From IMG/VR virus record IMGVR_UViG_3300029250_000344: a stretch of 64,000 nucleotides of DNA, one strand, 5' to 3'. A program made the translations under genes and the position numbers. Positions 8,096-55,058 of this stretch are shown piece by piece. A model generated the notes under the pieces. That model was not told the origin of the DNA and made no database searches. It saw only the letters and a program-made list of their open reading frames with translations. Every line of letters starts with the position of its first letter. The first letter of the stretch is position 1. The stretch is from a virus.

Positions 8096-8298
8096 ACTTC
8101 ACTCCAATCTATAAAATTAAATCCATAAAAATCTTTAGCACAGGCTTCACTGCAAAATACAGCACCCTCGTCTGTTGTTACAGCACAGTCCTCATCTCGA
8201 TAGATAGGACAACCGCAATGGTCGCACCACGCATAGACTTCACGCTTATGATTTGGGCAACGCGGCGGGCATTTCACTCGTTCACATATTTCACACAT
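8092..8298 (-). CDS. Cys-rich small protein
   Basis: 68 aa, Cys-rich (about 10 Cys); likely metal-binding. Confidence 0.4.
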   Translation of the reverse strand: MCEICERVKCPPRCPNHKREVYAWCDHCGCPIYRDEDCAVTTDEGAVFCSEACAKDFYGFNFIDWSEV

Positions 8299-8653
8299 AT
8301 TTATTTTTGTTTAATTTTTTGAGCAAATACAGATAGTCACTTTGTGATATAAGCTGTATGTCGGATATGATTATATCACACTCTGCGTCAAATGTGTTGT
8401 CTATGGCAGCCATCGCTTGCTCCAACGGAAACGTCGGGCTTGTACCGGACACGCAGCCGATAGTCTTGCGCGCATAACCTGTGCGCGGCACCCGTACATC
8501 ATACGTAAAATACCAATAATGTATATCACCTTCCTCTATGTGGTCAACTTTGAATGCATTAGGTGTTCTACCCAAACAAATAGTACATACAGGCTCTCCT
8601 ATTTCCGTGAAGTCGTCAGCTTCATGACCGCATTTCATAATATAGTGTGTCAT
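8291..8653 (-). CDS. hypothetical protein
   Basis: ORF in operon orientation. Confidence 0.4.
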   Translation of the reverse strand: MTHYIMKCGHEADDFTEIGEPVCTICLGRTPNAFKVDHIEEGDIHYWYFTYDVRVPRTGYARKTIGCVSGTSPTFPLEQAMAAIDNTFDAECDIIISDIQLISQSDYLYLLKKLNKNKYV

Positions 8654-8713
8654 CAGTTTTCCGTTGCGGATACCCCTTGCTTTAGCTACGGGGCAACGAA
8701 CCTCCTTTCATAT

Positions 8714-10009
8714 TTATGCTATTAAAAAATTCCGACTACGTTCCAGTAATTTCAAATGCTTATAGTTTACGCCATCCTTAACCTTTGTTCCATCAAGCTG
8801 CCGTAACAAAAAAGAACCACTGGTTCGCCTCCCCCAAACAAAACACACAATGCCATTGTATAACACTTTGTCGTAGAGGCGGTATCCAAAGACATACCTC
8901 TCTGCTTGATTGGACTTGCGGATTCCTCCCTTGAGAACAGTCGCCTTGTGGAGCTGCCGATTGTGGTGTCTCACTGGGCGAATCGTATAAACCTTATTGA
9001 CTTGCACGATCCCCGGAAGATGGCTGACATTGAAGCCATGCTTGCCTTGTGCGATTGCCAGAGCGTCATTGGTGTGGCTCTTGGGGAGCACTAACAACTT
9101 CTCTCGGGTAGCCTTTGTAATGTAGCCTTTCGTTTCGACAACGGGGATGTGCAACTCAGAGCAGAATCTTTGAACCAGTGTTGCCCGCATGACTCCCATG
9201 AACGTAGCATCTCTGGTTGGCCTTCGCTTGCGCTTCTTGAGGTCTTTCTCCGTAATCAACCCGCCGTGATGCTTTTTGTGACAACTTTCGCAAAGAGTGA
9301 TGAGGTTGCCGGGAGCGTCGCCGCCATATTTTCGGCTTTCCAGATGATGAACATGGAGCCGAACTTCATTCTTCTTTGTTGGCTGAACCCCGCAGCACTG
9401 GCAAGCATAGCCATCCCTCCAAAGTACGTACTGACGCACATTGTAGTGACCGTACATCTCTCCCTGCTGGTAGTCCTCTCCCTGTGGGACAGATTTCCCT
9501 TCTTCAATGGTTTTCAGCAGTTGCAAGTCGAACTCAGCAGTTTCTACGACCACCTTGCTCACCGGCAGGATGCGGCAAACCATCTTGATGGCGGTAATAT
9601 GCTCTTGGATTTTCACCTCCACAGAAGGCGCTAACCACCCTTTATGCTTACTGCGAACTCTGTTATTGAAACGTGGTTTACGGTAGCGGTTTTTTCGGTT
9701 TCTCCGAGCCTTGCGGAATTCACGACGAGTTGACATCAATTCCACCACGTCATTGCGCGGCTTTACTTCTGCTGAGAACAACTCCTCTTTTGTAGTGGAC
9801 GCGGACACTCCAATAGTCTTACTCCCAGCGTCCACTCCCAGAATAACCTTTTGAGTGTAACCGCTACTCCCGTAGATTAACTGGATGGTAAAAGGCGTCC
9901 TTTTCTTCACTTTGGCTTTCCCTTCATCCAGCAGATGGCGGGCTTTCGCCGGGGAGCAGGGCATCAGCGGACGCCCGTGCTTGTTAAGGACATATACTTT
10001 ATTTTGCAT
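8714..10009 (-). CDS. iscB: IscB RNA-guided nuclease
   Basis: N-terminal PLMP motif (GRPLMPCSPAKARHLL). RuvC-I GVDAGSKTIGVS. Arg-rich bridge REFRKARRNRKNRYRKPR. RuvC-II ETAEFD. HNH CQCCG...HVHHL...LCESCH. RuvC-III HTNDALA. Confidence 0.85.
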   Translation of the reverse strand: MQNKVYVLNKHGRPLMPCSPAKARHLLDEGKAKVKKRTPFTIQLIYGSSGYTQKVILGVDAGSKTIGVSASTTKEELFSAEVKPRNDVVELMSTRREFRKARRNRKNRYRKPRFNNRVRSKHKGWLAPSVEVKIQEHITAIKMVCRILPVSKVVVETAEFDLQLLKTIEEGKSVPQGEDYQQGEMYGHYNVRQYVLWRDGYACQCCGVQPTKKNEVRLHVHHLESRKYGGDAPGNLITLCESCHKKHHGGLITEKDLKKRKRRPTRDATFMGVMRATLVQRFCSELHIPVVETKGYITKATREKLLVLPKSHTNDALAIAQGKHGFNVSHLPGIVQVNKVYTIRPVRHHNRQLHKATVLKGGIRKSNQAERYVFGYRLYDKVLYNGIVCFVWGRRTSGSFLLRQLDGTKVKDGVNYKHLKLLERSRNFLIA

Positions 10010-10297
10010 GACACCAACCTCCCTCTTTTTTTTTGATTGTGACTAAAATAAAAAGCCACGCGGCCTTTCAGCCGTCAGGTATCCGTCCCCAATGTTATCT
10101 CAAGGTTTTTGTGTGCAACACTGCTCCTTACCCTCAGAACTGTTTAATCACACACCGCAGTGCGGCAGGTTCGGATTCACGCCCGCCGGTGCCTATACAT
10201 ACATTCTTGAGTAACGTAGTGCTCGAAGCACTCAGGGTAGTCAGTCTGAGCTTACGATTTCTCGCAAGCCCCGGCTTTAGCCGTGGGCTACTGACTT
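10010..10297 (-). ncRNA. candidate IscB omegaRNA
   Basis: ORF-free leader immediately 5' of iscB. Conserved blocks (TCCCCAATGT, TAACGTAGTGC, AGGGTAGTCA) and a compensatory-substituted hairpin are shared with the leader of the second iscB copy. Confidence 0.5.
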
Positions 10298-11451
10298 GAT
10301 GCAGTCAGACCACGAATGATGCTGTCTATCTCATGCGCGACTGATATGAAATCTGCCTGCCGAAATCCCTTAGTAGTCATAGCGGCGGTGCCAATTCGCA
10401 CGCCAGAGGTCTGCATAGGACTGCGAGATTCGTTCGGTACGCTGTTTTTATTGAGCGTGATGGAGTATTTGTCTAATGCGTCCTGAACGGCCTTGCCAGT
10501 CAGATTTGGGTGTGTACGTGTAAAATCGAGAAGGAACATGTGGTTGTCTGTACCGCCTGTCACCACTTCGTAGCCCATACGTGTGAATTCATTTGCCATA
10601 GCTTTGGCGTTTGCCTTGACTTGACAGATATAACTGATAAAATCAGGCTTTAAGGCTTCTTCAGCAGTTACAGCTTTTGCCGCTATAGTGTGCATATGTG
10701 GACCACCAGCCAAGCCGGGGAACAGCGCACTATCTACCTTCTTAGCGTATTCAGGTTTGCAGAAGATAAGAGCAGACCTTATGCCGCGTAACGTTTTATG
10801 AGTAGTAGTCGTTACAATATCGGCATAACCAAACGGAGATGGATGCTCTCCCGCCGCTACAAGTCCAGCTATATGGGCGATGTCTGCAAGTAGCAGTGCG
10901 TCATTGGCGTGCGCAATCTCAGCAAAACGCTCAAAGTCAATGACACGGCTATATGCAGATGCGCCAGCCACGATGAGCTTAGGCTTAAACGCCTTAGTCG
11001 TCGCTTCGACGTGTGCCATGTCTATATATCCATTGATATCAAGGCAATAGTGGCGAATATTGTACAATTTGCCAACCTGACTGACGGCAGCACCGTGTGA
11101 AAGATGCCCACCCATATTCAAGTCCAAACTAAGTATGATGTCGTTGGGTTTTAGCACCGTTGCATATGCTACCAAATTAGCGTGCGTACCGCTAAGTGGC
11201 TGAACGTTTACATGATAATCTGTATGGAATACTTCCTGCCACTTCTGTTGGCAGTATAGTTCAAGCTCGTCTACAATATCGCAGCCACCATAGTAGCGTT
11301 TGCCCGGATAGCCCTCGGCATATTTATTGGTTAAGCAACTTCCAGCCGCCTTTAGCACGTTTGCGGATACAAAATTTTCTGATGCTATCAGCTCTATGGT
11401 TGAATCTTGGCGGTTTGCTTCCTTTTGTATCAGTTCAAATACTTTACTCAT
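10288..11451 (-). CDS. glyA: serine hydroxymethyltransferase
   Basis: ELIASENF N-terminal motif and PLP-lysine region THKTLRG. 387 aa. The last codons and the stop lie inside IS-derived sequence. Confidence 0.85.
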   Translation of the reverse strand: MSKVFELIQKEANRQDSTIELIASENFVSANVLKAAGSCLTNKYAEGYPGKRYYGGCDIVDELELYCQQKWQEVFHTDYHVNVQPLSGTHANLVAYATVLKPNDIILSLDLNMGGHLSHGAAVSQVGKLYNIRHYCLDINGYIDMAHVEATTKAFKPKLIVAGASAYSRVIDFERFAEIAHANDALLLADIAHIAGLVAAGEHPSPFGYADIVTTTTHKTLRGIRSALIFCKPEYAKKVDSALFPGLAGGPHMHTIAAKAVTAEEALKPDFISYICQVKANAKAMANEFTRMGYEVVTGGTDNHMFLLDFTRTHPNLTGKAVQDALDKYSITLNKNSVPNESRSPMQTSGVRIGTAAMTTKGFRQADFISVAHEIDSIIRGLTASSQ

Positions 11452-21311: not shown

Positions 21312-21387
21312 TGGAGCCATCTGTGGGACTCGAACCCACAACCTTCGCCTTACGAAAGCGTCGCTCTACCGATTGGGCTAAGATGGC
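21312..21387 (-). tRNA. tRNA-Thr (anticodon CGU), CCA encoded
   Basis: 7-bp acceptor stem, GTTCGAGTC T-arm, A14/G18G19/A21 D-loop. The anticodon stem has one mismatch. Confidence 0.6.
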
Positions 21388-21567
21388 CTGATGAATGGAA
21401 GCTTCCCCCGAAGGGAGGTTTACCAACCCAGATGCATCTTAGGGTTTCCTTTACAAACTCGAAAGTCTTACCTGTCAAACCAAGTTTAATACCGTGACTC
21501 TTTATTTAGGGTGTACCCCTCGGGGTGAGGGACGGATACAAGACGATTTCCCCGAGCTGGAGCCGAC

Positions 21568-21641
21568 AGGCGGACTCGAACCGCCACTACCTGCTTACAA
21601 GACAGGGCTTCTGCCATTGAATTATGTCGGCTTGGCCCTAT
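21568..21641 (-). tRNA. tRNA-Thr (anticodon UGU), CCA encoded
   Basis: Perfect acceptor and T stems. Anticodon loop CTTGTAA. Confidence 0.65.
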
Positions 21642-21673
21642 ATGATATAGGGCCTTTTCGAAAGGAGGCTTAA

Positions 21674-21721
21674 GCCAGTGGTGGGAGTTGCACCCACATA
21701 TCGACACTAAATTACACTGGC
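21674..21721 (-). other. tRNA-like minihelix (acceptor-type 7-bp stem enclosing a T-arm-like hairpin)
   Basis: GCCAGTG ... GTGGG-TGCAACT-CCCAC ... CACTGGC on the minus strand, with no D or anticodon arms. Confidence 0.3.
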
Positions 21722-21836
21722 ATGATGAGCAACCTTTCTGCCGTAGTGTGCCAAAGTCTTACTCCGGCCACGGCCGTCTCCGTAGCTGCTCGGGACGCAT
21801 AAACTCGTCTACGTGGGCATCCATGGAATGCCAAAT

Positions 21837-21921
21837 TGGTGCCGAGAGCGGGATTTGAACCCGCAAGCTTTTCGCCGGCGGATTTTAAGTCCGCTGTGTA
21901 TGCCTATTCCACCATCTCGGC
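21837..21921 (-). tRNA. tRNA-Leu (anticodon UAA), type II with long variable arm, CCA encoded
   Basis: Acceptor GCCGAGA/TCTCGGC. T-arm GCGGGTTCAAATCCCGC. Anticodon stem GCGGA/TCCGC with loop CTTAAAA. Confidence 0.8.
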
Positions 21922-28592: not shown

Positions 28593-29186
28593 TTATACCC
28601 CCTCATCGAGCCGCTCAATCTCTGCTTCAAGTTCAGCCTTTTTGTATATGGCAATAGCGCGACGCATATCATTTATGGCCTGTTTATATATATTACCAAA
28701 GTCTTTATACAGCTTATACCCATTTTCGACGGAGAAGATATAGTCATTATTTACACCATCCCAATCTATAGGGTTATATTCCTGTATGCGCTTTAGAAAA
28801 TTAACCCAAACATCTTCGGCTTCTGCTTTATAGGCATAGGCGGAACTCGCGCATAAATTCAATCGCCCACAACCTCCACAACCAAAATGAATATACCATT
28901 TACTATCATTCAGCGTTTGATGTGTAGTTTTATTTGTAAGTCTGTAATTATGAACTACGTCAAAGCAAAAACTACAATAATGGCGCTTTAGCTTAATCAT
29001 ATGCCAACCATCGACAGACATTTCCTCCGGTGGAATATCGCACTCTATTGCAGCAGACAGTAGTTCTACTACTTGTTGAGGTGTCTGCCCGTTGTATTCT
29101 TTTGTCAACACCTTTGTGTCCTTAACAATTCTTTTAGCAATGGATAGATGTTTTTCCAACTGCTTCTTATTAACCATTCCCAACAT
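28593..29186 (-). CDS. hypothetical protein
   Basis: ORF. Confidence 0.45.
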   Translation of the reverse strand: MLGMVNKKQLEKHLSIAKRIVKDTKVLTKEYNGQTPQQVVELLSAAIECDIPPEEMSVDGWHMIKLKRHYCSFCFDVVHNYRLTNKTTHQTLNDSKWYIHFGCGGCGRLNLCASSAYAYKAEAEDVWVNFLKRIQEYNPIDWDGVNNDYIFSVENGYKLYKDFGNIYKQAINDMRRAIAIYKKAELEAEIERLDEGV

Positions 29187-29514
29187 CCCCTCCCTTGTAT
29201 TTCGGCATCTCGGCCCAATTTGTCACTTCACACTCTTCACACAAAGCATGACAAAACCATGTTCCTTTGGGGGTTAAAAAACATTCACGCGAAGTAGGGA
29301 ACGGATCTTGACTTGGTATATGTCCTATCACTGACACATACTCCGGGGGTGGGTTACTTGGGGCGTCGTGCCAAGTTACGACCTGTTTACTAAGCTCCTC
29401 TATGACATCGGCAGCTTCCGCACATATATCACGTTTTCGAAGACTGACGCTATTTGTGTGCGATATTTCTCGCAAGCTCTTTATAAGTTCCTCTTTGTTC
29501 ATTAAGTGGGGCAA
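29170..29514 (-). CDS. hypothetical protein (TTG start)
   Basis: ORF. Confidence 0.4.
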   Translation of the reverse strand: MPHLMNKEELIKSLREISHTNSVSLRKRDICAEAADVIEELSKQVVTWHDAPSNPPPEYVSVIGHIPSQDPFPTSRECFLTPKGTWFCHALCEECEVTNWAEMPKYKGGDVGNG

Positions 29515-29637
29515 GGATACCCATAACTTTAGTCATGGGAGGAATTGCCCTTTTACTTCCTTTCTGTAATGTAATTCGTTGAAGCTTCTAATAGTCGCAG
29601 CTTTCTGTAGGACGCACTGTTAGAAACAACAGTGCCA

Positions 29638-30805
29638 TCAAACTTTTTTTAGAGCAAAATATCCTGATATGCGTCTGCCTGTGATAAAGCATTCTGTACC
29701 GTTATAGGATACTTTGTCCCAAAGGCGATAGCCTTTTACGATGTACGGTGCTTGATTAGCTTTGCGTATGCCGCCTTTCAGGATGGTTGCTTTATGCAAC
29801 TGCCTGTTATGGTGACGTACTGCTTTTGTGTAGTAGCAAGTACCACAAGGTATAGCCAATAGATTTTTACTAATGCATCGTGCATCATTGGTGTGGCTTT
29901 TAGAGATGCTGTTCTTTTCGCGTAAATACTTTGTTATGTAGCCGTAAGTCTCTTGCACAGGGATCTTTAGATTTTTGTGCAGGCGTTCCATAAGTGTCTT
30001 GCGCATAATGCCCATAAAGGCTGCATCTTGGAGAGGCTTTCCTCTCTTTTTGCCGTCAAGTGTTACCTTTCCAGCGTGTAGTGCTTTGTGACAAACTGTG
30101 CAAAGCACTACAAGATTGTTGGGTGCATTGCCACCTGTTCTACGGGTCTCGATGTGATGCACATGCAGCTTTATGCCTTTAGTTTTGGTAGAATGCGCTC
30201 CACAGCACTGGCAAGTGTTTTAGTACATACTGGCGTACATTGTACTCATCGTACATTTCACCAATCTGATAGTCTGTGCCAACTGGCATAGGTTTACCTT
30301 CCAGCATTGCTTTCAAACGTTGTGTGTCAAACTCTGCTGTCTCCACTCTGACGAGCGTAATAGGTAAAATGCGACATACGCGCTTAATGAGCGTAATGTG
30401 TTCCTGAATCTTAACCTCTACCGACGGCGCTAACCAGCCCTTATGTTTGCTATGCACCCTGTTGCTAAAACGCGGCGCACGATAGCGTGTTTTACGGTGC
30501 CGTCTGTTGCGTCTGAAAGCACGGCGTGCAGAAAGCAAATCGACCACATCATTGCGTGGAGTTGCTTCTTCACGATAGAGTTCGTACTTTTCAGTCGTAG
30601 CAGATATACCGATATGTTTGCTGCCTGCATCCACACCCAAAGTAACGGGTTGTTTGTATCCTGTACTTCCGTACAGAAGTTTGATTGTAAATGGTGTACG
30701 TTTTACAACGCTCGCCTTATTCTGCTTTAACAATAAGCGAGTCTTGCGTGGAGAACACGGCATCAAGGGTTCGCCGCGCTCGTTAAGTACATACACATAT
30801 TGCAT
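29638..30805 (-). pseudogene. iscB: iscB pseudogene (frameshift/stop in the HNH region)
   Basis: ORFs 30179..30805 and 29638..30162 together align to full-length IscB. About 13 nt are missing between ...VRQYVL and CQCCG, which shifts the frame. PLMP, RuvC-I/II/III and the second half of HNH are retained. Confidence 0.75.
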
Positions 30806-31125
30806 GACGCCATGCCCCTTTCTTAGTGTGACAGCTAATGATAAGCTGTCCTCTCCTCCGAAGAAGAGTTAGAATCCTTCCCCAATGTCATAAGCGGTTT
30901 AATGCAGCCACACCTGTTGTCTTTGCCTCGGATTTCTTTGATGTGTTGCCTTAGAGCGTGCAGTTAGGATTGACGCCACACGGTAACTATCTATTCGCCT
31001 ATAACGTAGTGCAGCATACAGCACGAGGCTATAGCTGAGGGTAGTCAACACACCCTTTCGGGCGCGGCTGAAGTTACAGACTCACGTTTCCACAAGCCCG
31101 CGACTTCAGTCGTGGGTTATTGACT
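30806..31125 (-). ncRNA. candidate omegaRNA, copy 2
   Basis: 5' leader of the iscB pseudogene. Shares conserved blocks and the covarying hairpin with 10010-10297. Confidence 0.45.
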
Positions 31126-47916: not shown

Positions 47917-48654
47917 CTACTTATTGCGCTCGTACAGTGATTCATAGGACGTTCCGGTTATGACGCGGTTGATAACCTGCACAACCAGTTTGATTATGGT
48001 ATTTCCTTTAGGCATAGCCACAGTCTTAGGCTTTTTACCTGCTTTGCACGCCGTCAGCACCATAAAGGCGATATCCTGAGACGTTACCTTATAAATGTTC
48101 TTCCCTTCGCCATTGTCCTCGAATATGATAGCATCCACCAAACGCTGGAGCTCTTTCGTCAACGTTGTTTTGCTGATAGGATTCTTTTCCTGAGTACGTT
48201 CCGCGTGCTTGTCCATGCGGTACACGTTAAGCAATTCCTTCCAGTCTCCGCCCAATTCCGCCGTTGCATAAGCGGACAGCAGACGCGCCATGTTATCCGC
48301 CCGGTATACCCAGCCGGATTCGTTACTGATTTTCTGAGGTTCACAGAAACGGTTGAACGCCGCCAAGTCGATAATCTTTTTCCCATCGACAAGCATATAC
48401 TTGCCATTTTCCTTATCCTGCCCTAACGTTATCTTGCTTACTTCCAACGCCATAATTGCGTTGTACATGGGCTTATTAGATGCCCGCAGCACGGAAAATT
48501 CCTCATTCATAACCATGAGGTTAAGTTTGCTTACGTTTTCGCTCACGCCGTGCAGCAGCTTTGCAATTTCGTCATTGGGCTTATTCTCAAGGATAAGGCC
48601 ATTCAGGTTCTGGATATCGCTTTCAAGGTTCTTGCGCATTTCAGTTGAATTCAT
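47917..48654 (-). CDS. hypothetical protein
   Basis: ORF. Confidence 0.45.
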   Translation of the reverse strand: MNSTEMRKNLESDIQNLNGLILENKPNDEIAKLLHGVSENVSKLNLMVMNEEFSVLRASNKPMYNAIMALEVSKITLGQDKENGKYMLVDGKKIIDLAAFNRFCEPQKISNESGWVYRADNMARLLSAYATAELGGDWKELLNVYRMDKHAERTQEKNPISKTTLTKELQRLVDAIIFEDNGEGKNIYKVTSQDIAFMVLTACKAGKKPKTVAMPKGNTIIKLVVQVINRVITGTSYESLYERNK

Positions 48655-48697
48655 TGTTGTATCTCCTTAATATTTGTTATACTAAGGGCATAAGCCC

Positions 48698-48726
48698 TTT
48701 GATTAACAATCAGTACGTTAATCAAA
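48698..48726. promoter_or_regulatory. operator-like perfect palindrome TTTGATTAAC-N9-GTTAATCAAA
   Basis: 10-bp inverted arms, about 45 bp upstream of the 48654 start codon. Confidence 0.4.
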
Positions 48727-49168
48727 AGTCTTACAAAAGCGGGCTACACCCGTTAAGGTATAACCCGCCTGATACGCTTATTTTTTTGCCCTCACATGTT
48801 CGCTTACGTTTCAACACAATGCAGGTTCAAACGCTTACATGGCAGACGCGGAACGAATTCCATGTAATGGGCTGTTTTACGCAATGGCGCGGAACGCCTT
48901 GCACGGCCTGTTCTTGCCTGTACGCATATCAATGTATGCTTGCACGTTGGCGGTAACTAACCCCGATACAGTCAAGCGTATTTGCTCAACGCTTTGCCGC
49001 GCGGCTTTGCGTCCCGCGCGTAACGTTGCAGGCGCTTGCTTTCGCTTTTCGCCCGTGTTGTGCAGGCGCTTGCTTTGCGGCTTGTGTTCGTGCCGCTTGC
49101 TTGCGCTTACAGTTATAGGGGAATGAGAATGACGGCAGTACACACAAAATACAAAATTTTTTGCATAA

Positions 49169-49196
49169 AAAAAGCCGCCTTGCGGCGGCCTTGTTT
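49169..49196 (-). terminator. intrinsic terminator on minus strand
   Basis: GCCGCC-TTGC-GGCGGC stem followed by a T7 run on the minus strand. Confidence 0.55.
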
Positions 49197-49905
49197 ACAG
49201 TTTGAATGCGCGTGTTTCATCAGGCCATATGCGCGTTGCTATGCGCTGAATGTTGCGGCGAATGTTGCTTATACGTTGCTTTGATACCCCCAGCCGTTCG
49301 GCTATCGCGTCCCCGCTCAGCCCTTGCATACGATAACTTAATACGGCACGTTCAGCATGAGTAAGTAACGGCCTTATCTGTTGCAACATATCCATAGTAA
49401 CGGCATAATCTGCCCAGTCATGCACGTCATAGTATCGCGTCACTTTGATGTATTCGGGATCGGATACTTCCATACCGTCATCCGTATGCGCCATATCTTC
49501 AATGTATGTATCACGCAATGCCGGACGCACGGCGGCGGCATATATGGCCTTGTGTACGGCCTTATAGGCGGCTTTGCGCACGGCATCGGGCAGAATATAG
49601 GCCGCATCGGTGGCTATCGCATCAGCTATGCAAGGCGCGGCGCATTCGATAATGGCAAGCGCGGCAACCTGCACAAGATCCGCCGCATCGGTTAGCGGCT
49701 GGACGCGCAGCGCGTCATATGCGTCCGTATCATCCATTGCACGGCCATACATACGCATTGCAGCCGCATCACGTCCGGCCAATGCCGCGCGCATATTGTC
49801 TATCTTTTCAGCGCGTCCAGCTTTAGCGGCGCAAGTACGCAATGCCGTGCGGGCAATTATAGTTGCGTGTTCGGTGGTGGTGTGTGTGTAGGTGGTGTGT
49901 GTCAT
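49195..49905 (-). CDS. sigma-factor-like regulator (region-4 HTH)
   Basis: C-terminal LTHAERAVLSYRMQGLSGDAIAERLGVSKQRISNIRR. GC- and Ala-rich, unlike the surrounding genes. Confidence 0.5.
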   Translation of the reverse strand: MTHTTYTHTTTEHATIIARTALRTCAAKAGRAEKIDNMRAALAGRDAAAMRMYGRAMDDTDAYDALRVQPLTDAADLVQVAALAIIECAAPCIADAIATDAAYILPDAVRKAAYKAVHKAIYAAAVRPALRDTYIEDMAHTDDGMEVSDPEYIKVTRYYDVHDWADYAVTMDMLQQIRPLLTHAERAVLSYRMQGLSGDAIAERLGVSKQRISNIRRNIQRIATRIWPDETRAFKL

Positions 49906-50039
49906 AGGTTTTATCCTTCTTTCCGGCCTATTGGATGGCCTGTTATTGTGATACTGCTATTTTACCGCTTTGCGGTGGTAGTGCATAGATGGTTTGTCGT
50001 TATATTGGGGTCGCAATGCTATAAGCGCACGTTATGGCG

Positions 50040-50112
50040 GTGTGGATAATGTGCATAAGTGTGTGGATGGGGTGTGAATGGAGTGTGGACGATTATCGTT
50101 AAACGATAATTT
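50040..50112. promoter_or_regulatory. iteron-like GTGTG(G/A)A x4 plus perfect palindrome ATTATCGTT-A-AACGATAAT
   Basis: Direct repeats at 50040, 50063, 50072 and 50083. Palindrome at 50092-50110. Confidence 0.4.
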
Positions 50113-50173
50113 TAACTAATGGTTATTAGTTTAATCCTGCCTTATTAGCCCTGATCCCCCTAATATCCGCCGA

Positions 50174-50207
50174 ACGTAGAAAATGGCGGATTTTTTTACA
50201 GATATAT
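50174..50207 (+). terminator. terminator-like hairpin on plus strand
   Basis: ATCCGCC ... GGCGGAT stem followed by a T7 run. Confidence 0.4.
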
Positions 50208-50535
50208 AAGGGGGTATTTTCAACCGTTTCAGCCCATATTCCGGGCGTTTTTCGGTGTAGTACATCCACCCACACCTCACCCGCCAATTCTCGCCATCTC
50301 CGTTCATAAAATTTACGCATCCCAATATCCATCCCAGCACCATTCCCACCCCACAACAAAAATCCCCTAATCATCTACGTTTTTTACCTATAATCTATGG
50401 TTATATCGAATGGTATTACCGAGGATACCGAACTACACTATACGCACAGCTTATACCCCGAAGAACCTTTTTTGGTTATAAGGGCAAAAAAAAGAAAAAG
50501 CGCGAGCGAGTCACCGGTGGTGCGAGCGAGCATAT

Positions 50536-50565
50536 TGACAGATAAGTGGTGCTTATGGTATACTC
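50536..50565 (+). promoter_or_regulatory. strong sigma70 promoter for the rightward operon
   Basis: TTGACA, an 18-nt spacer, then TGgTATACT. Confidence 0.55.
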
Positions 50566-50667
50566 ATTTTCCCTTATATATCTTCTTTAAGGAAATGCTT
50601 CAAAAAAGCCCCTAATTTAGGGGTGTTTCAGAAAAAAAATGAGGTAAAATCTAATAAAGGGGGGTTT

Positions 50668-52759: not shown

Positions 52760-52942
52760 TTGGAAAACAACAAGGCGCAGGTGTTCAGCAGTGAACAGTT
52801 CGGTAATGTATGCACTATTATGCGTGACGGTGAGCCATGGTTCGTGGCGGCAGATATATGTAAGGCGATAGAGATTGCAAATAATCGTGATGCGCTTACC
52901 GGAAAGTGGCGTAAAGCCCTTTGCTTTAGCTATGGGATATAA
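52760..52942 (+). pseudogene. Bro-N domain N-terminal fragment, cut by the TnpB element
   Basis: EQFGNVCTIMRDGEPWFVAADICKAIEI matches the Bro-N starts of the paralogs at 55344 and 56927. The last codons are encoded by the IS end hairpin. Confidence 0.5.
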
Positions 52943-53069
52943 GCCACAATGTTTTCCGCAAAATATTGCAATAGTTTTGCGCTTGTAGTGTAACGTTGCT
53001 ATGAAATATAAAGCAACCAAAATGCAGTACATAGAGAATCAGAAAAACGTCTGAAAGCGAGGTGAGATA

Positions 53070-54182
53070 GTGGAATATTCCTACAAGTTTCGTTTGTATC
53101 CTACCGCTGTGCAGAGAGCGCAAATATCCCGGAATTTTGGTTGCTTCCGGTATGTGTTTAACCACTTTCTCGCCCAAAGGCAGGAGCAGTATAAAGAAAC
53201 AGGAACATCTCCTACGCGGTTCCAGCAAGACAAAATCCTCACGATACTCAAACAAGAATTGCCGTGGTTGAAGGAAGCGGATTCCACGTCATTGCAGGCA
53301 ACCCTTCAAGACTTGGACATGGCCTATCAGAACTTCTTCCGTCGTGTAAAGCAGGGTGAGAAGCCCGGCTATCCCCGATTCAAGAGCAAGAGAGCCCATC
53401 GGCAGAGCTACAAGAGCAAGTGCGTAGGGACAAATATCAAAGTATTAGAAGGTGCTGTACAGCTCCCCAAACTGGGAAAGGTAAAATGCCGGATAAGCAA
53501 GCCCGTAGAGGGGCGTATTCTATCTGCAACCGTCAGCCAGACTCCAAGCGGAAAATATTTTGTAGCCCTGTGCTGTACAGATATTGATATGGAGCCGCTG
53601 CCATCTACAGGGGCGGTGGTCGGCATCGACATGGGGCTGAAAGCATTTGCAATCACCTCCGACGGCGTTTCATACCAAAACCACAAGTATCTTGCGAAGT
53701 CCGAAAAGAAGCTTGCGAAACTTCAACGGCAACTCTCCCGAAAATCAAAGGGGAGTAACCGCTGGGAGAAGGCAAGATTGCAGGTAGCGCGGCTTCACGA
53801 ACACATTACTAACCAGCGGCATGATATGCTCCACAAACTATCCACCGACCTTGTACGGAACTATGATTTGATTGCGATTGAGGATCTGGCTTCGTCTAAC
53901 ATGGTGAAAACCCACAAGCTTGCGAAAGCAATCTCTGATGCAGGTTGGGGCGAGTTCCGGCGGCAGTTGCAGTACAAGGCAGCATGGTACGGAAAGGAGG
54001 TGGTTGCGATAGACCGCTTTTACCCCTCCAGCCAGCTTTGCTCCGCTTGCGGCGCTCAGTGGTCGGGCACGAAAGACCTGTCCGTGCGCGAATGGACTTG
54101 CCCACAATGCGGCGCACAGCATGATAGGGACATAAACGCTGCGAAGAACATTTTGAACGAGGGATTACGCCTGTTGGCGTAA
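53070..54182 (+). CDS. tnpB: TnpB RNA-guided nuclease
   Basis: RuvC D (GIDMG), E (AIEDL), zinc finger CSACG...CPQCG, C-terminal [10 protein letters not shown]. Confidence 0.85.
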
Positions 54183-54305
54183 CCAATACACATGGTAGGG
54201 CGGGACACGCCCGAACCTATACGCTCGGGGACACCGTGTAAGACCTTGCAAACGCAGGCGGTGGTGGTTGAACCGAGAATCCCCCGGCTTTAGCCGTGGG
54301 GTGTC
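54100..54305 (+). ncRNA. candidate TnpB omegaRNA / right-end region
   Basis: The 3' end of tnpB plus a 120-nt tail ending in the type-A hairpin. By family knowledge the guide would lie beyond 54305. Confidence 0.35.
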
Positions 54306-54344
54306 AAAAATATTAGCGGTGTTGATTGTTATTAAAAGGACGGC

Positions 54345-55058
54345 ATGGCCTATTTGAAGCTTGAGGCCGTAGCCAGAGGGTTGGGTTTTACAGACAACAG
54401 TAAGGGTGTAGAGTATGTGCGTTGGAACACCGTTAAACAGTATTTGGCCGATATTGGCTTTTCGCAGGAAGTTGCGAAAACAGACTACATCCCCGAGAAC
54501 GTATTCTATCGCCTTGCTATGAAGGCCAAGAATGAGACTGCGGAAAGGTTTCAGGCATTAGTGGCTGACGAAATAATACCCACCATCCGTAAGACTGGCG
54601 GCTATGTGCAGGCTGGCCGTGAAGAAGAATTCATCGAGAGGTACTTCCCCGCTTTCTCGGACGAGACCAAGCTTACTATGGTTAAGGATTTGAGGACGCA
54701 GGTGCTGGCATTGAAGGCCGACAACGCCAAACAGCAGGCACAACTGGCCGAGCAGCAACCCAAGGTCGAGTTTGCCGACCATGTGGCCGATTCCAAGACA
54801 CTGCTCACTGTGTCCGCCTTTGCCAAGATAGTGCAGAACGAGGATATTAAGCTGGGGCGCAATAAGCTGATGGCGTGGCTAAGAGATCGTGGTTATCTGC
54901 GTGCTAATAACGAGCCGTATCAGCAGTATATTAAACAGGGGCTGTTTCAGGTGCGTGAGGTGTATGTGAATGGTATGGTTCACCCTGTCACCTTCATCAC
55001 TGGTAAGGGCCAGCTCCATTTAGTTGGGAAGCTACGTGCCGAGTTTTGTGCGGCGTAA
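54345..55058 (+). CDS. antirepressor C-terminal region (Bro paralog remainder)
   Basis: Aligns with residues about 40-249 of the 55344 paralog (IPENVFYRLA..., EFADHVADSK..., GYLRANNEPYQQY). Confidence 0.55.
   Translation: MAYLKLEAVARGLGFTDNSKGVEYVRWNTVKQYLADIGFSQEVAKTDYIPENVFYRLAMKAKNETAERFQALVADEIIPTIRKTGGYVQAGREEEFIERYFPAFSDETKLTMVKDLRTQVLALKADNAKQQAQLAEQQPKVEFADHVADSKTLLTVSAFAKIVQNEDIKLGRNKLMAWLRDRGYLRANNEPYQQYIKQGLFQVREVYVNGMVHPVTFITGKGQLHLVGKLRAEFCAA

Follow-up and report, generated by a model that had tools for sequence, protein, structure and literature searches.

The 64-kb window analysed here (the whole stretch of 64,000 nucleotides, from a gut phage genome) contains two iscB loci and one tnpB locus with similar hairpins at their ends, which raises the question of whether two unrelated guide-RNA nucleases can be served by the same transposase, and of why one of the two hairpins of each locus should lie on the side of the guide RNA. 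A preliminary description of this DNA had distinguished a type A hairpin, always on the omegaRNA side, from a type B hairpin at the opposite end, and had interpreted both as the ends of a single IS200/IS605 subfamily mobilized by a TnpA encoded elsewhere. We find that the three loci are non-autonomous IS200/IS605 "OMEGA" transposons (two IscB elements and one TnpB element), and the hairpins are very probably their subterminal imperfect palindromes, which would be bound by a dimer of the Y1 (HUH) transposase TnpA in the single-stranded top strand.

Hairpin motifs at the element ends

All six motifs were located at the positions given in the preliminary description. They follow the pattern CCC-N5-TT(T/C)A-N5-GGG and lie on the + strand, one at each end of the three elements and none elsewhere in the window. 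Exact searches of the 64 kb matched the type A core (CGGCTTTAGCCG) solely at 10272 and 54285 and the type B core (TTGCTTTAGCTA) solely at 8677 and 52921, while the pattern CCC-N5-TTTA-N5-GGG gave four matches against 0.09 from shuffled sequences, all on the + strand and at element ends, and its TTCA-loop counterpart gave one (31097-31116). Since both patterns match at element ends alone, the motif is absent away from the elements within the window, so that the abundance of unlinked copies, which had been named as a possible objection, was not observed there.

The TTTA loop that had been ascribed to both hairpin types does not hold for the type A hairpin of IscB copy 2, which has a TTCA loop. 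The hairpins of copy 2 differ from those of copy 1 at several positions, and the substitutions in its type A hairpin, described previously as compensated, comprise one true compensatory pair (G-C to A-T), the other change being an inserted G that pairs with a T of the 3' arm; this T is bulged in copy 1 and in the tnpB element and forms a G.T wobble in copy 2. Folding as single-stranded DNA, as had been suggested, gave stable structures for the three type A hairpins (-8 to -9.4 kcal/mol, z-scores of -3.0 to -3.8). The type B hairpins are weak on their own; they contain a T.T or A.C mismatch, do not correspond to the minimum-energy fold and have z-scores of -0.2 to -1.2. Alignment of the six ends shows a single architecture common to all of them, so that types A and B amount to variants of the same hairpin. 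When the IscB elements of the window are compared with its TnpB element, the hairpins of ~20 nt are alike, whereas the remaining end sequence and the cleavage and guide tetranucleotides differ. As in IS200/IS605 elements, terminal inverted repeats are absent and subterminal imperfect palindromes are found at both ends, on the top strand, in all three elements.

Boundaries and integrity of the elements

An exact search of IMG/VR with the 18-mer CCCGGCTTTAGCCGTGGG retrieved at least 120 stretches, and protein-based searches added a further 79 IscB and 69 TnpB loci; boundaries were drawn from comparisons covering over 30 independent IscB insertions and over 15 TnpB relatives (Table 1). Across 34 distinct IscB insertions, flanking sequence varies as far as TCAT, and conservation of the left end begins directly after it, and the right ends of the relatives always terminate in TTGAC. 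In the TnpB relatives, the left end begins after TTAC or TTAT and the right end terminates in GGGGAGTGTCAA. Insertion takes place 3' of a specific tetranucleotide, no direct repeat (that is, no target-site duplication) flanks the three copies in the window, and the IscB and TnpB element families are found in dozens of different sequence contexts.

It had also been proposed to map the boundaries by comparing occupied and empty sites. The multi-copy comparison and the breakpoints in one sister contig support the boundaries, but no true empty site for the three insertions was found among the sister contigs retrieved through four flanking genes. These sisters, identified by exact-protein look-ups, are gut-metagenome contigs of about 240 kb, and all of them carry the three elements except L275, which is devoid of IscB copy 1. 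In L275, homology breaks exactly at 10295/10296 and resumes at ATGACACAC, which corresponds to 8653/8654, although this contig represents a replacement and not a clean empty site, an AcrVA2-like gene being present at the position of IscB copy 1. An exact search of metagenome contigs for the donor joint of the tnpB insertion, a megablast comparison of both insertion regions with GenBank phages and a search of IMG/VR for relatives of the 120-aa flanking ORF gave no match. With a slash marking the joint, the predicted donor joints are GCATCAA/ATGACAC, GAGGAA/ATGAAC and GCGCTTAC/AAATATTAG.

The ORFs of iscB copy 1 and tnpB are intact, and both give Pfam matches along the full length; the frameshift in iscB copy 2 is common to all sister contigs. 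Some of the sisters (L272, L273 and L277) have the iscB gene of copy 1, intact in the window, split into ORFs of 125 and 302 aa. At the right end of the TnpB element (54298-54307), the window has GGGG-TGTCAA where every relative has GGGG-AG-TGTCAA, and this 2-nt (AG) deletion between hairpin and cleavage site could impair excision or the omegaRNA. The TnpB element is inserted after TTAC in a Bro-N gene fragment (52760-52899, with 54308-55058 beyond the element); once the donor joint is restored, this fragment is in frame with an ANT/Bro-N ORF downstream (54345-55058), separated from it by one TAA (54333-54335).

Table 1. Coordinates of the three elements and of their component features in the window.
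Feature	Position	Strand	Basis or remark
TCAT target and left cleavage site, IscB element 1	8650-8653	+	Variable flank stops exactly 5' of TCAT in 34 distinct insertions; ATGA (predicted TAM) on the iscB strand, overlapping the start codon of gene 8291-8653(-)
IscB element copy 1	8654-10295	top strand +; iscB and omegaRNA on -	Multi-copy comparison; L275; HEARO match ending at 10295
Left end, copy 1: guide GATA; type B hairpin CCCCTTGCTTTAGCTACGGGG	8669-8672; 8673-8693	+	Pairing rule, TCAT with GATA
iscB copy 1, 431 aa, intact	8714-10009	-	Pfam RRXRR (2.6e-60), HNH (4.4e-07)
IscB omegaRNA 1 scaffold (HEARO)	10074-10295	-	RF02033, 122 bits (gathering score 83), E 1.1e-24
Right end, copy 1: guide CAAG; type A hairpin; cleavage site TGAC	10265-10268; 10269-10287; 10292-10295	+	
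Predicted guide segment, IscB omegaRNA 1	10296-10315	-	Flanking DNA (3' end of the SHMT gene); predicted from the HEARO 5' end at 10295 and Meers et al., 2023
TCAT target and left cleavage site, IscB element 2	29499-29502	+	Overlaps the ATG of gene 29170-29502(-)
IscB element copy 2	29503-31124	+	
Left end, copy 2: guide GATA; hairpin	29516-29519; 29520-29539	+	
iscB copy 2, frameshifted (two ORFs)	29638-30162; 30179-30805	-	Same protein as copy 1, split (Pfam)
IscB omegaRNA 2	30868-31124	-	HEARO, 69.4 bits, E 5.5e-14, below gathering score; 5' end at 31124
Right end, copy 2: guide CAAG; type A variant CCCGCGACTTCAGTCGTGGG; cleavage site TGAC	31093-31096; 31097-31116; 31121-31124	+	
TTAC target and left cleavage site, TnpB element (also predicted TnpB TAM)	52896-52899	+	Within Bro-N gene fragment; TTAC or TTAT in relatives
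TnpB element	52900-54307	top strand +; tnpB sense	
Left end, TnpB element: guide AAAG; type B hairpin CCCTTTGCTTTAGCTATGGG	52913-52916; 52917-52936	+	
tnpA relic (MKYKATKMQYIENQKNV-stop)	53001-53054	+	N- and C-termini of Y1 transposase fused
tnpB, 370 aa	53070-54182	+	Pfam HTH_OrfB_IS605, OrfB_IS605, Cas12f1-like TNB
TnpB omegaRNA scaffold, 3' part	54186-54307	+	5' limit may fall inside the ORF
Right end, TnpB element: guide GAAT; type A hairpin; cleavage site TCAA	54277-54280; 54281-54301; 54304-54307	+	
Predicted guide segment, TnpB omegaRNA	54308-54327	+	Flanking DNA; predicted from the right-end boundary and published TnpB architecture

The type A hairpin within the guide RNAs

The assignment of the type A hairpin to the omegaRNA side is supported for the three elements. 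In both IscB copies the HEARO match corresponds to an RNA that begins with GUCA at the element end, and the type A hairpin is the first internal stem-loop of the HEARO model (consensus CCC.CcgcccUaAAggAgGGGG), so that a curated family has included this motif for years. The full model is matched by copy 1 at a score above the gathering threshold, whereas copy 2, which has an insertion, scores below it. For the region 3' of tnpB, 16 relatives gave a consensus structure of 30 pairs, 14 of which show compensatory changes, with 98.7% of the cells paired; these values were reached by none of 500 shuffles and collapse when the partners are slid by 1-3 columns. The last helix of this RNA is the type A hairpin, after which come (AG)UGUCAA and the flanking sequence. 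When the region 3' of tnpB was scanned against Rfam by E-value, the sole match was at chance level (the H. pylori sRNA HPnc0580, E 1.8), and therefore no curated family covers this TnpB omegaRNA. Each element thus combines a nuclease gene with a structured RNA that overlaps its right end, as described for OMEGA systems and as evidenced by the HEARO matches and by the covariation 3' of tnpB. The omegaRNAs are predicted to continue into the flanking DNA, which would provide the guide.

Orientation of the nuclease genes

The preliminary description had considered iscB to be antisense to tnpB within the transposon frame and had related this to the TAM being 3' for IscB and 5' for TnpB. Taking the TTTA loop as reference, the genes upstream of the type A hairpin in viral contigs follow this arrangement without exception among the matches listed, with tnpB in sense in 56 of 56 cases and iscB in antisense in 6 of 6. 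The TAM sides fit as well, since the left-flank tetranucleotide is located 5' of the TnpB target and, as ATGA, 3' of the IscB target (both being predicted TAMs). A constant opposite orientation of tnpB and iscB was described in 11 families (Kapitonov, Makarova and Koonin, 2016, J Bacteriol, PMC4810608), in a study that also reported shared termini of ISC and IS605B elements, hairpins as Y1 transposase sites, trans-mobilization, and N/ATGA targets with 5'-GTCA termini in ISC elements (PMC4810608).

This arrangement is very probably explained by the way in which the guide RNAs are built. In either nuclease, the guide RNA would join a scaffold inside the element to a guide taken from the DNA beyond the right end, and the right-end hairpin would therefore always be part of the omegaRNA, in sense and as the last helix for TnpB, and as the reverse complement and first hairpin for IscB. 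With both omegaRNAs read from the scaffold across the right end into the flank, a 3' guide (TnpB) needs a sense gene and a 5' guide (IscB) an antisense one, so that incorporation of the right-end hairpin into the omegaRNA would force tnpB to be sense and iscB to be antisense to the top strand. The TnpA target would, in turn, fall on the TAM side of each nuclease, TTAC being 5' for TnpB and TCAT (ATGA on the iscB strand) 3' for IscB.

The top strands of the three elements are all on the + strand of the window. We considered GC skew as an explanation and discarded it, as the skew merely follows gene orientation and flips near 48-50 kb, and thus allows no inference on the replication strand; a better explanation of the common strand is that each nuclease gene runs in the direction of its neighbours. 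At ~48000-50600 the sign of the GC skew changes and gene orientation switches from - to +, the three top strands being + on both sides, and this region is a possible origin or divergent promoter region.

Pairing of guide and cleavage tetranucleotides

The TnpA of IS608 binds the hairpins of both ends in the top strand; its two cuts follow TTAC, at a distance of 19 nt upstream of the left hairpin, and TCAA, 10 nt downstream of the right one, and 4-nt guides on the 5' side of each hairpin foot (AAAG at the left) recognize these sites (PMC3201880). The tetranucleotide pairs identified here are TTAC with AAAG (left) and TCAA with GAAT (right) in the TnpB element, and TCAT with GATA (left) and TGAC with CAAG (right) in both IscB elements. 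The right guide of IS608 is also GAAT. All four pairs in the window obey the rule that bases 2 and 4 of the cleavage tetranucleotide pair with guide bases 1 and 4, respectively. Of 111 distinct right ends with an identical hairpin, 68 have the 4-mer that this rule predicts, compared with a mean of 30.6 and a maximum of 41 for permuted pairings, and guide and cleavage sites covary as sets (GAAT with TCAA, GAAG with TCAC, GAAC with TCAG, CAAG with TGAC and AAAG with TTAC). At the left ends of TnpB relatives, TTAC goes with AAAG and TTAT with AAAA. A covariation of the same kind was reported between TAM/TEM and DNA guides (Meers et al., 2023). TnpA would thus not read the cleavage sites themselves, which would be selected by pairing of the cleavage tetranucleotide with the four bases 5' of the hairpin foot.

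Distribution of the hairpins among relatives

The search for further copies that had been recommended was productive, with many instances of the same hairpins next to tnpB, iscB or tnpA in viral contigs and genomes. The exact 26-mer AGAATCCCCCGGCTTTAGCCGTGGGG around type A is present in at least 120 genome contigs (L292-L411), from Bacillota, Chloroflexota, Cyanobacteria, Acidobacteriota, Planctomycetota, Actinomycetes and others, attesting that the hairpin is very widespread. Such a spread is unusually wide for an identical IS end.

The relatives do not sustain the notion of two end-specific hairpin types. In the window, type B is at the left and type A at the right, but in relatives either type can take either end. 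We rejected A and B as end-specific classes because most IscB relatives have nearly identical hairpins at both ends, the type A 18-mer constitutes the left hairpin in some tnpA-bearing elements, and a few elements have type B as their right hairpin, while some mini-elements have it as their sole hairpin. The conclusion drawn from the shared ends, that the three elements belong to one IS200/IS605 subfamily, was overstated: the ~20-nt hairpins are indeed shared, but the tetranucleotides differ and type A occurs in many phyla, so that a shared type A hairpin is weak evidence for a single transposase. A derived type B variant, with a swapped pair and the T.T mismatch, is common to IscB copy 1, the tnpB element, locus L122 and the autonomous element L110, and is somewhat better evidence for a common transposase than type A.

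Single-hairpin mini-elements of the form TTAC/...gtaaag-CCCCTTGCTTTAGCTATGGGG-agtatgTCAA/ (slashes marking the element ends) were observed in IMG/VR (L429, L440, L456, L461, L462, L473, L479 and L481). Their lone hairpin is located between a left-type guide and a right-type cleavage site, and they may be extreme PATE-like derivatives.

Transposase, autonomous relatives and a tnpA relic

That TnpA is encoded elsewhere, as previously proposed, is plausible. We used four TnpA queries in tblastn, two of which, taken from relatives, were confirmed as Y1_Tnp by Pfam, and found no TnpA in the window save a 17-codon relic; as a positive control, TnpA was detected with these queries in about 50 loci elsewhere. 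Any present mobility would therefore need a transposase supplied in trans. The relic, in the TnpB element, consists of the first four and the last nine residues of the TnpA of autonomous relatives (L355, L360 and L110) with four other codons in between, which identifies the element as an internal-deletion derivative of a tnpA-tnpB IS605 and illustrates the origin of TnpB-only elements from an IS605.

A Y1_Tnp transposase (Pfam E 1e-45) is encoded by autonomous relatives whose right end is the same. Such relatives were identified in IMG/VR (L023, L076 and L110, the latter also having a type B left hairpin) and in Clostridia/Oscillospiraceae genome assemblies (L355 and L360, whose TnpBs are 81 and 78% identical, respectively, to that of the window). 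The source of TnpA in trans is probably an IS605 of a Clostridia or Oscillospiraceae host. A single GstTnpA was shown to excise both TnpB and IscB elements (Meers et al., 2023).

Nature of the hairpins and present state of the elements

Hairpins with G+C-rich stems at gene boundaries could, in principle, be transcription terminators or regulatory hairpins of gene boundaries, with no role in transposition. The chance of this being correct seems to be negligible, as the hairpins are not followed by a T-run, all six are on one strand whatever the gene direction, type A is inside a curated RNA family, and the hairpins are conserved along with the flanking tetranucleotides (guide and cleavage) across hundreds of unrelated contexts, in every case beside tnpB, iscB or tnpA; the multi-locus comparison effectively refutes a terminator function. 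The hairpins could, alternatively, have a transposition origin but be relics today, the three elements being immobile fossils fixed in the phage lineage, with neither TnpA excision nor homing, and the type A hairpins may then survive solely as parts of the guide RNAs. We regard this as a genuine possibility, albeit a doubtful one. The presence of all three elements in the sister contigs, the frameshift of iscB copy 2 in all sisters and the split of copy 1 in some, the reduction of tnpA to a relic by deletion, the loss of 2 nt between hairpin and TCAA at the tnpB right end and a window that encodes no TnpA are all in line with it, but iscB copy 1 and tnpB are intact with full-length Pfam matches, the hairpins and the guide and cleavage tetranucleotides are all preserved, a host TnpA could act in trans, and retention of the elements is what the TnpB/IscB homing model predicts (Meers et al., 2023). 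Present mobility of the elements is uncertain, and recent mobility in this phage is unsupported, since the sister contigs carry the elements and neither a true empty site nor a donor joint was found.

A further question is whether the IscB and TnpB elements are mobilized by different TnpAs, the shared hairpin being a very widespread consensus. The occurrence of the type A 26-mer in genome contigs of many phyla and of the 18-mer core in viral stretches (at least 120 in each case), the different cleavage and guide tetranucleotides of IscB and TnpB elements, and the departure of the copy 2 hairpins from those of copy 1 at several positions would agree with such a separation. Nevertheless, we consider it unlikely, since in the IS608 model TnpA reads the hairpin and not the tetranucleotides (PMC3201880), one GstTnpA excised both kinds of element (Meers et al., 2023), and the derived type B variant is common to IscB copy 1, the tnpB element and the autonomous L110. 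We thus favour the hairpins being TnpA-binding palindromes of non-autonomous transposons; by analogy with the published systems, TnpA would bind and excise the elements, and the RNA-guided nucleases would home to the donor joints.

Comparison with known systems

Shared termini, opposite orientation and trans-mobilization have already been published (Kapitonov et al., 2016, PMC4810608; Meers et al., 2023). The IscB elements resemble the N/ATGA group of ISC elements (PMC4810608) in the 5'-GTCA terminus on the iscB strand, the insertion directly upstream of ATGA, the imperfect subterminal hairpins, the termini shared with TnpB-only elements, the opposite orientation of tnpB and iscB, and the lack of tnpA, for which trans-mobilization was proposed. 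In contrast, the present copies are in an uncultured gut phage of ~240 kb and the ISC elements in a bacterial chromosome, and the ISC/IS605B pairs of 2016 share the ATGA target, whereas here the TnpB element uses TTAC and TCAA and the IscB elements TCAT and TGAC.

The TnpB element is similar to IS608 of Helicobacter pylori in TTAC, the left guide AAAG and TCAA (PMC3201880), in having hairpins on the top strand at both ends and no inverted repeats, and in the order tnpA-tnpB of its autonomous relatives. It differs from IS608 in the hairpin sequence, in its tnpA, which is down to a 17-codon relic, and in spacing, with the left hairpin 17 nt from TTAC (19 nt in IS608) and the right-end cut 6 nt from its hairpin (8 nt in relatives and 10 nt in IS608). 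The ISGst elements of Geobacillus stearothermophilus (Meers et al., 2023) likewise comprise elements of both nucleases, TnpB and IscB, which have related ends and mostly lack tnpA, with covarying TAM/TEM and DNA guides and a HEARO omegaRNA that starts at the right end and has its guide outside the element; here, however, the host is a phage and the cleavage tetranucleotides are others. Our example agrees with the published model, according to which a single transposase system that reads hairpins can serve two guide-RNA nucleases unrelated to each other, with the transposon frame setting gene orientation, omegaRNA side and TAM side, and it adds no new principle. Its practical value is in the exact boundaries, the predicted TAMs (TTAC for TnpB and ATGA for IscB) and the guide positions of three phage-borne OMEGA elements.

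Insertion at start codons and phage context

The IscB target TCAT is ATGA on the iscB strand, and both copies in the window coincide with the start codon of the next gene. Among the 34 distinct IscB insertions (loci L121-L199), 25 have an ATG that begins an ORF of 50 codons or more, compared with 37% of control ATGA sites. At such ATGA sites, the IscB element falls between the ribosome-binding site and the start codon. The specific homing target in phage genes may be the ATGA made of a start codon plus the following A, and the IscB element may run in the direction of the upstream gene, with read-through transcription then producing the guide.

The AcrVA2-like gene (PF26125) of the sister phage is located at L275:2923-3945 (Logan ERR11591931_12), on the opposite strand, in the slot equivalent to window 8654-10295, which hints at exchange or competition between OMEGA elements and anti-defence genes in large gut phages. 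A joint scenario, in which IscB elements home to start-codon ATGA sites, wedged between ribosome-binding site and ATG, and in which OMEGA elements either compete with anti-defence cassettes for common hot spots or are exchanged with them there, is conceivable, even if we judge it improbable as a whole.

A nucleotide-metabolism block comprising serine hydroxymethyltransferase (SHMT), ThyX (Thy1), ribonucleotide reductase and a DNA methylase is present at 10288-11451 (-) and in neighbouring genes (gene table of L271), and the SHMT reading frame terminates at a TAG (10288-10290) inside the right end of IscB copy 1. The window also contains three tRNA genes in a row at 21315-21921 (-), each with an Rfam score of 60-61 bits.
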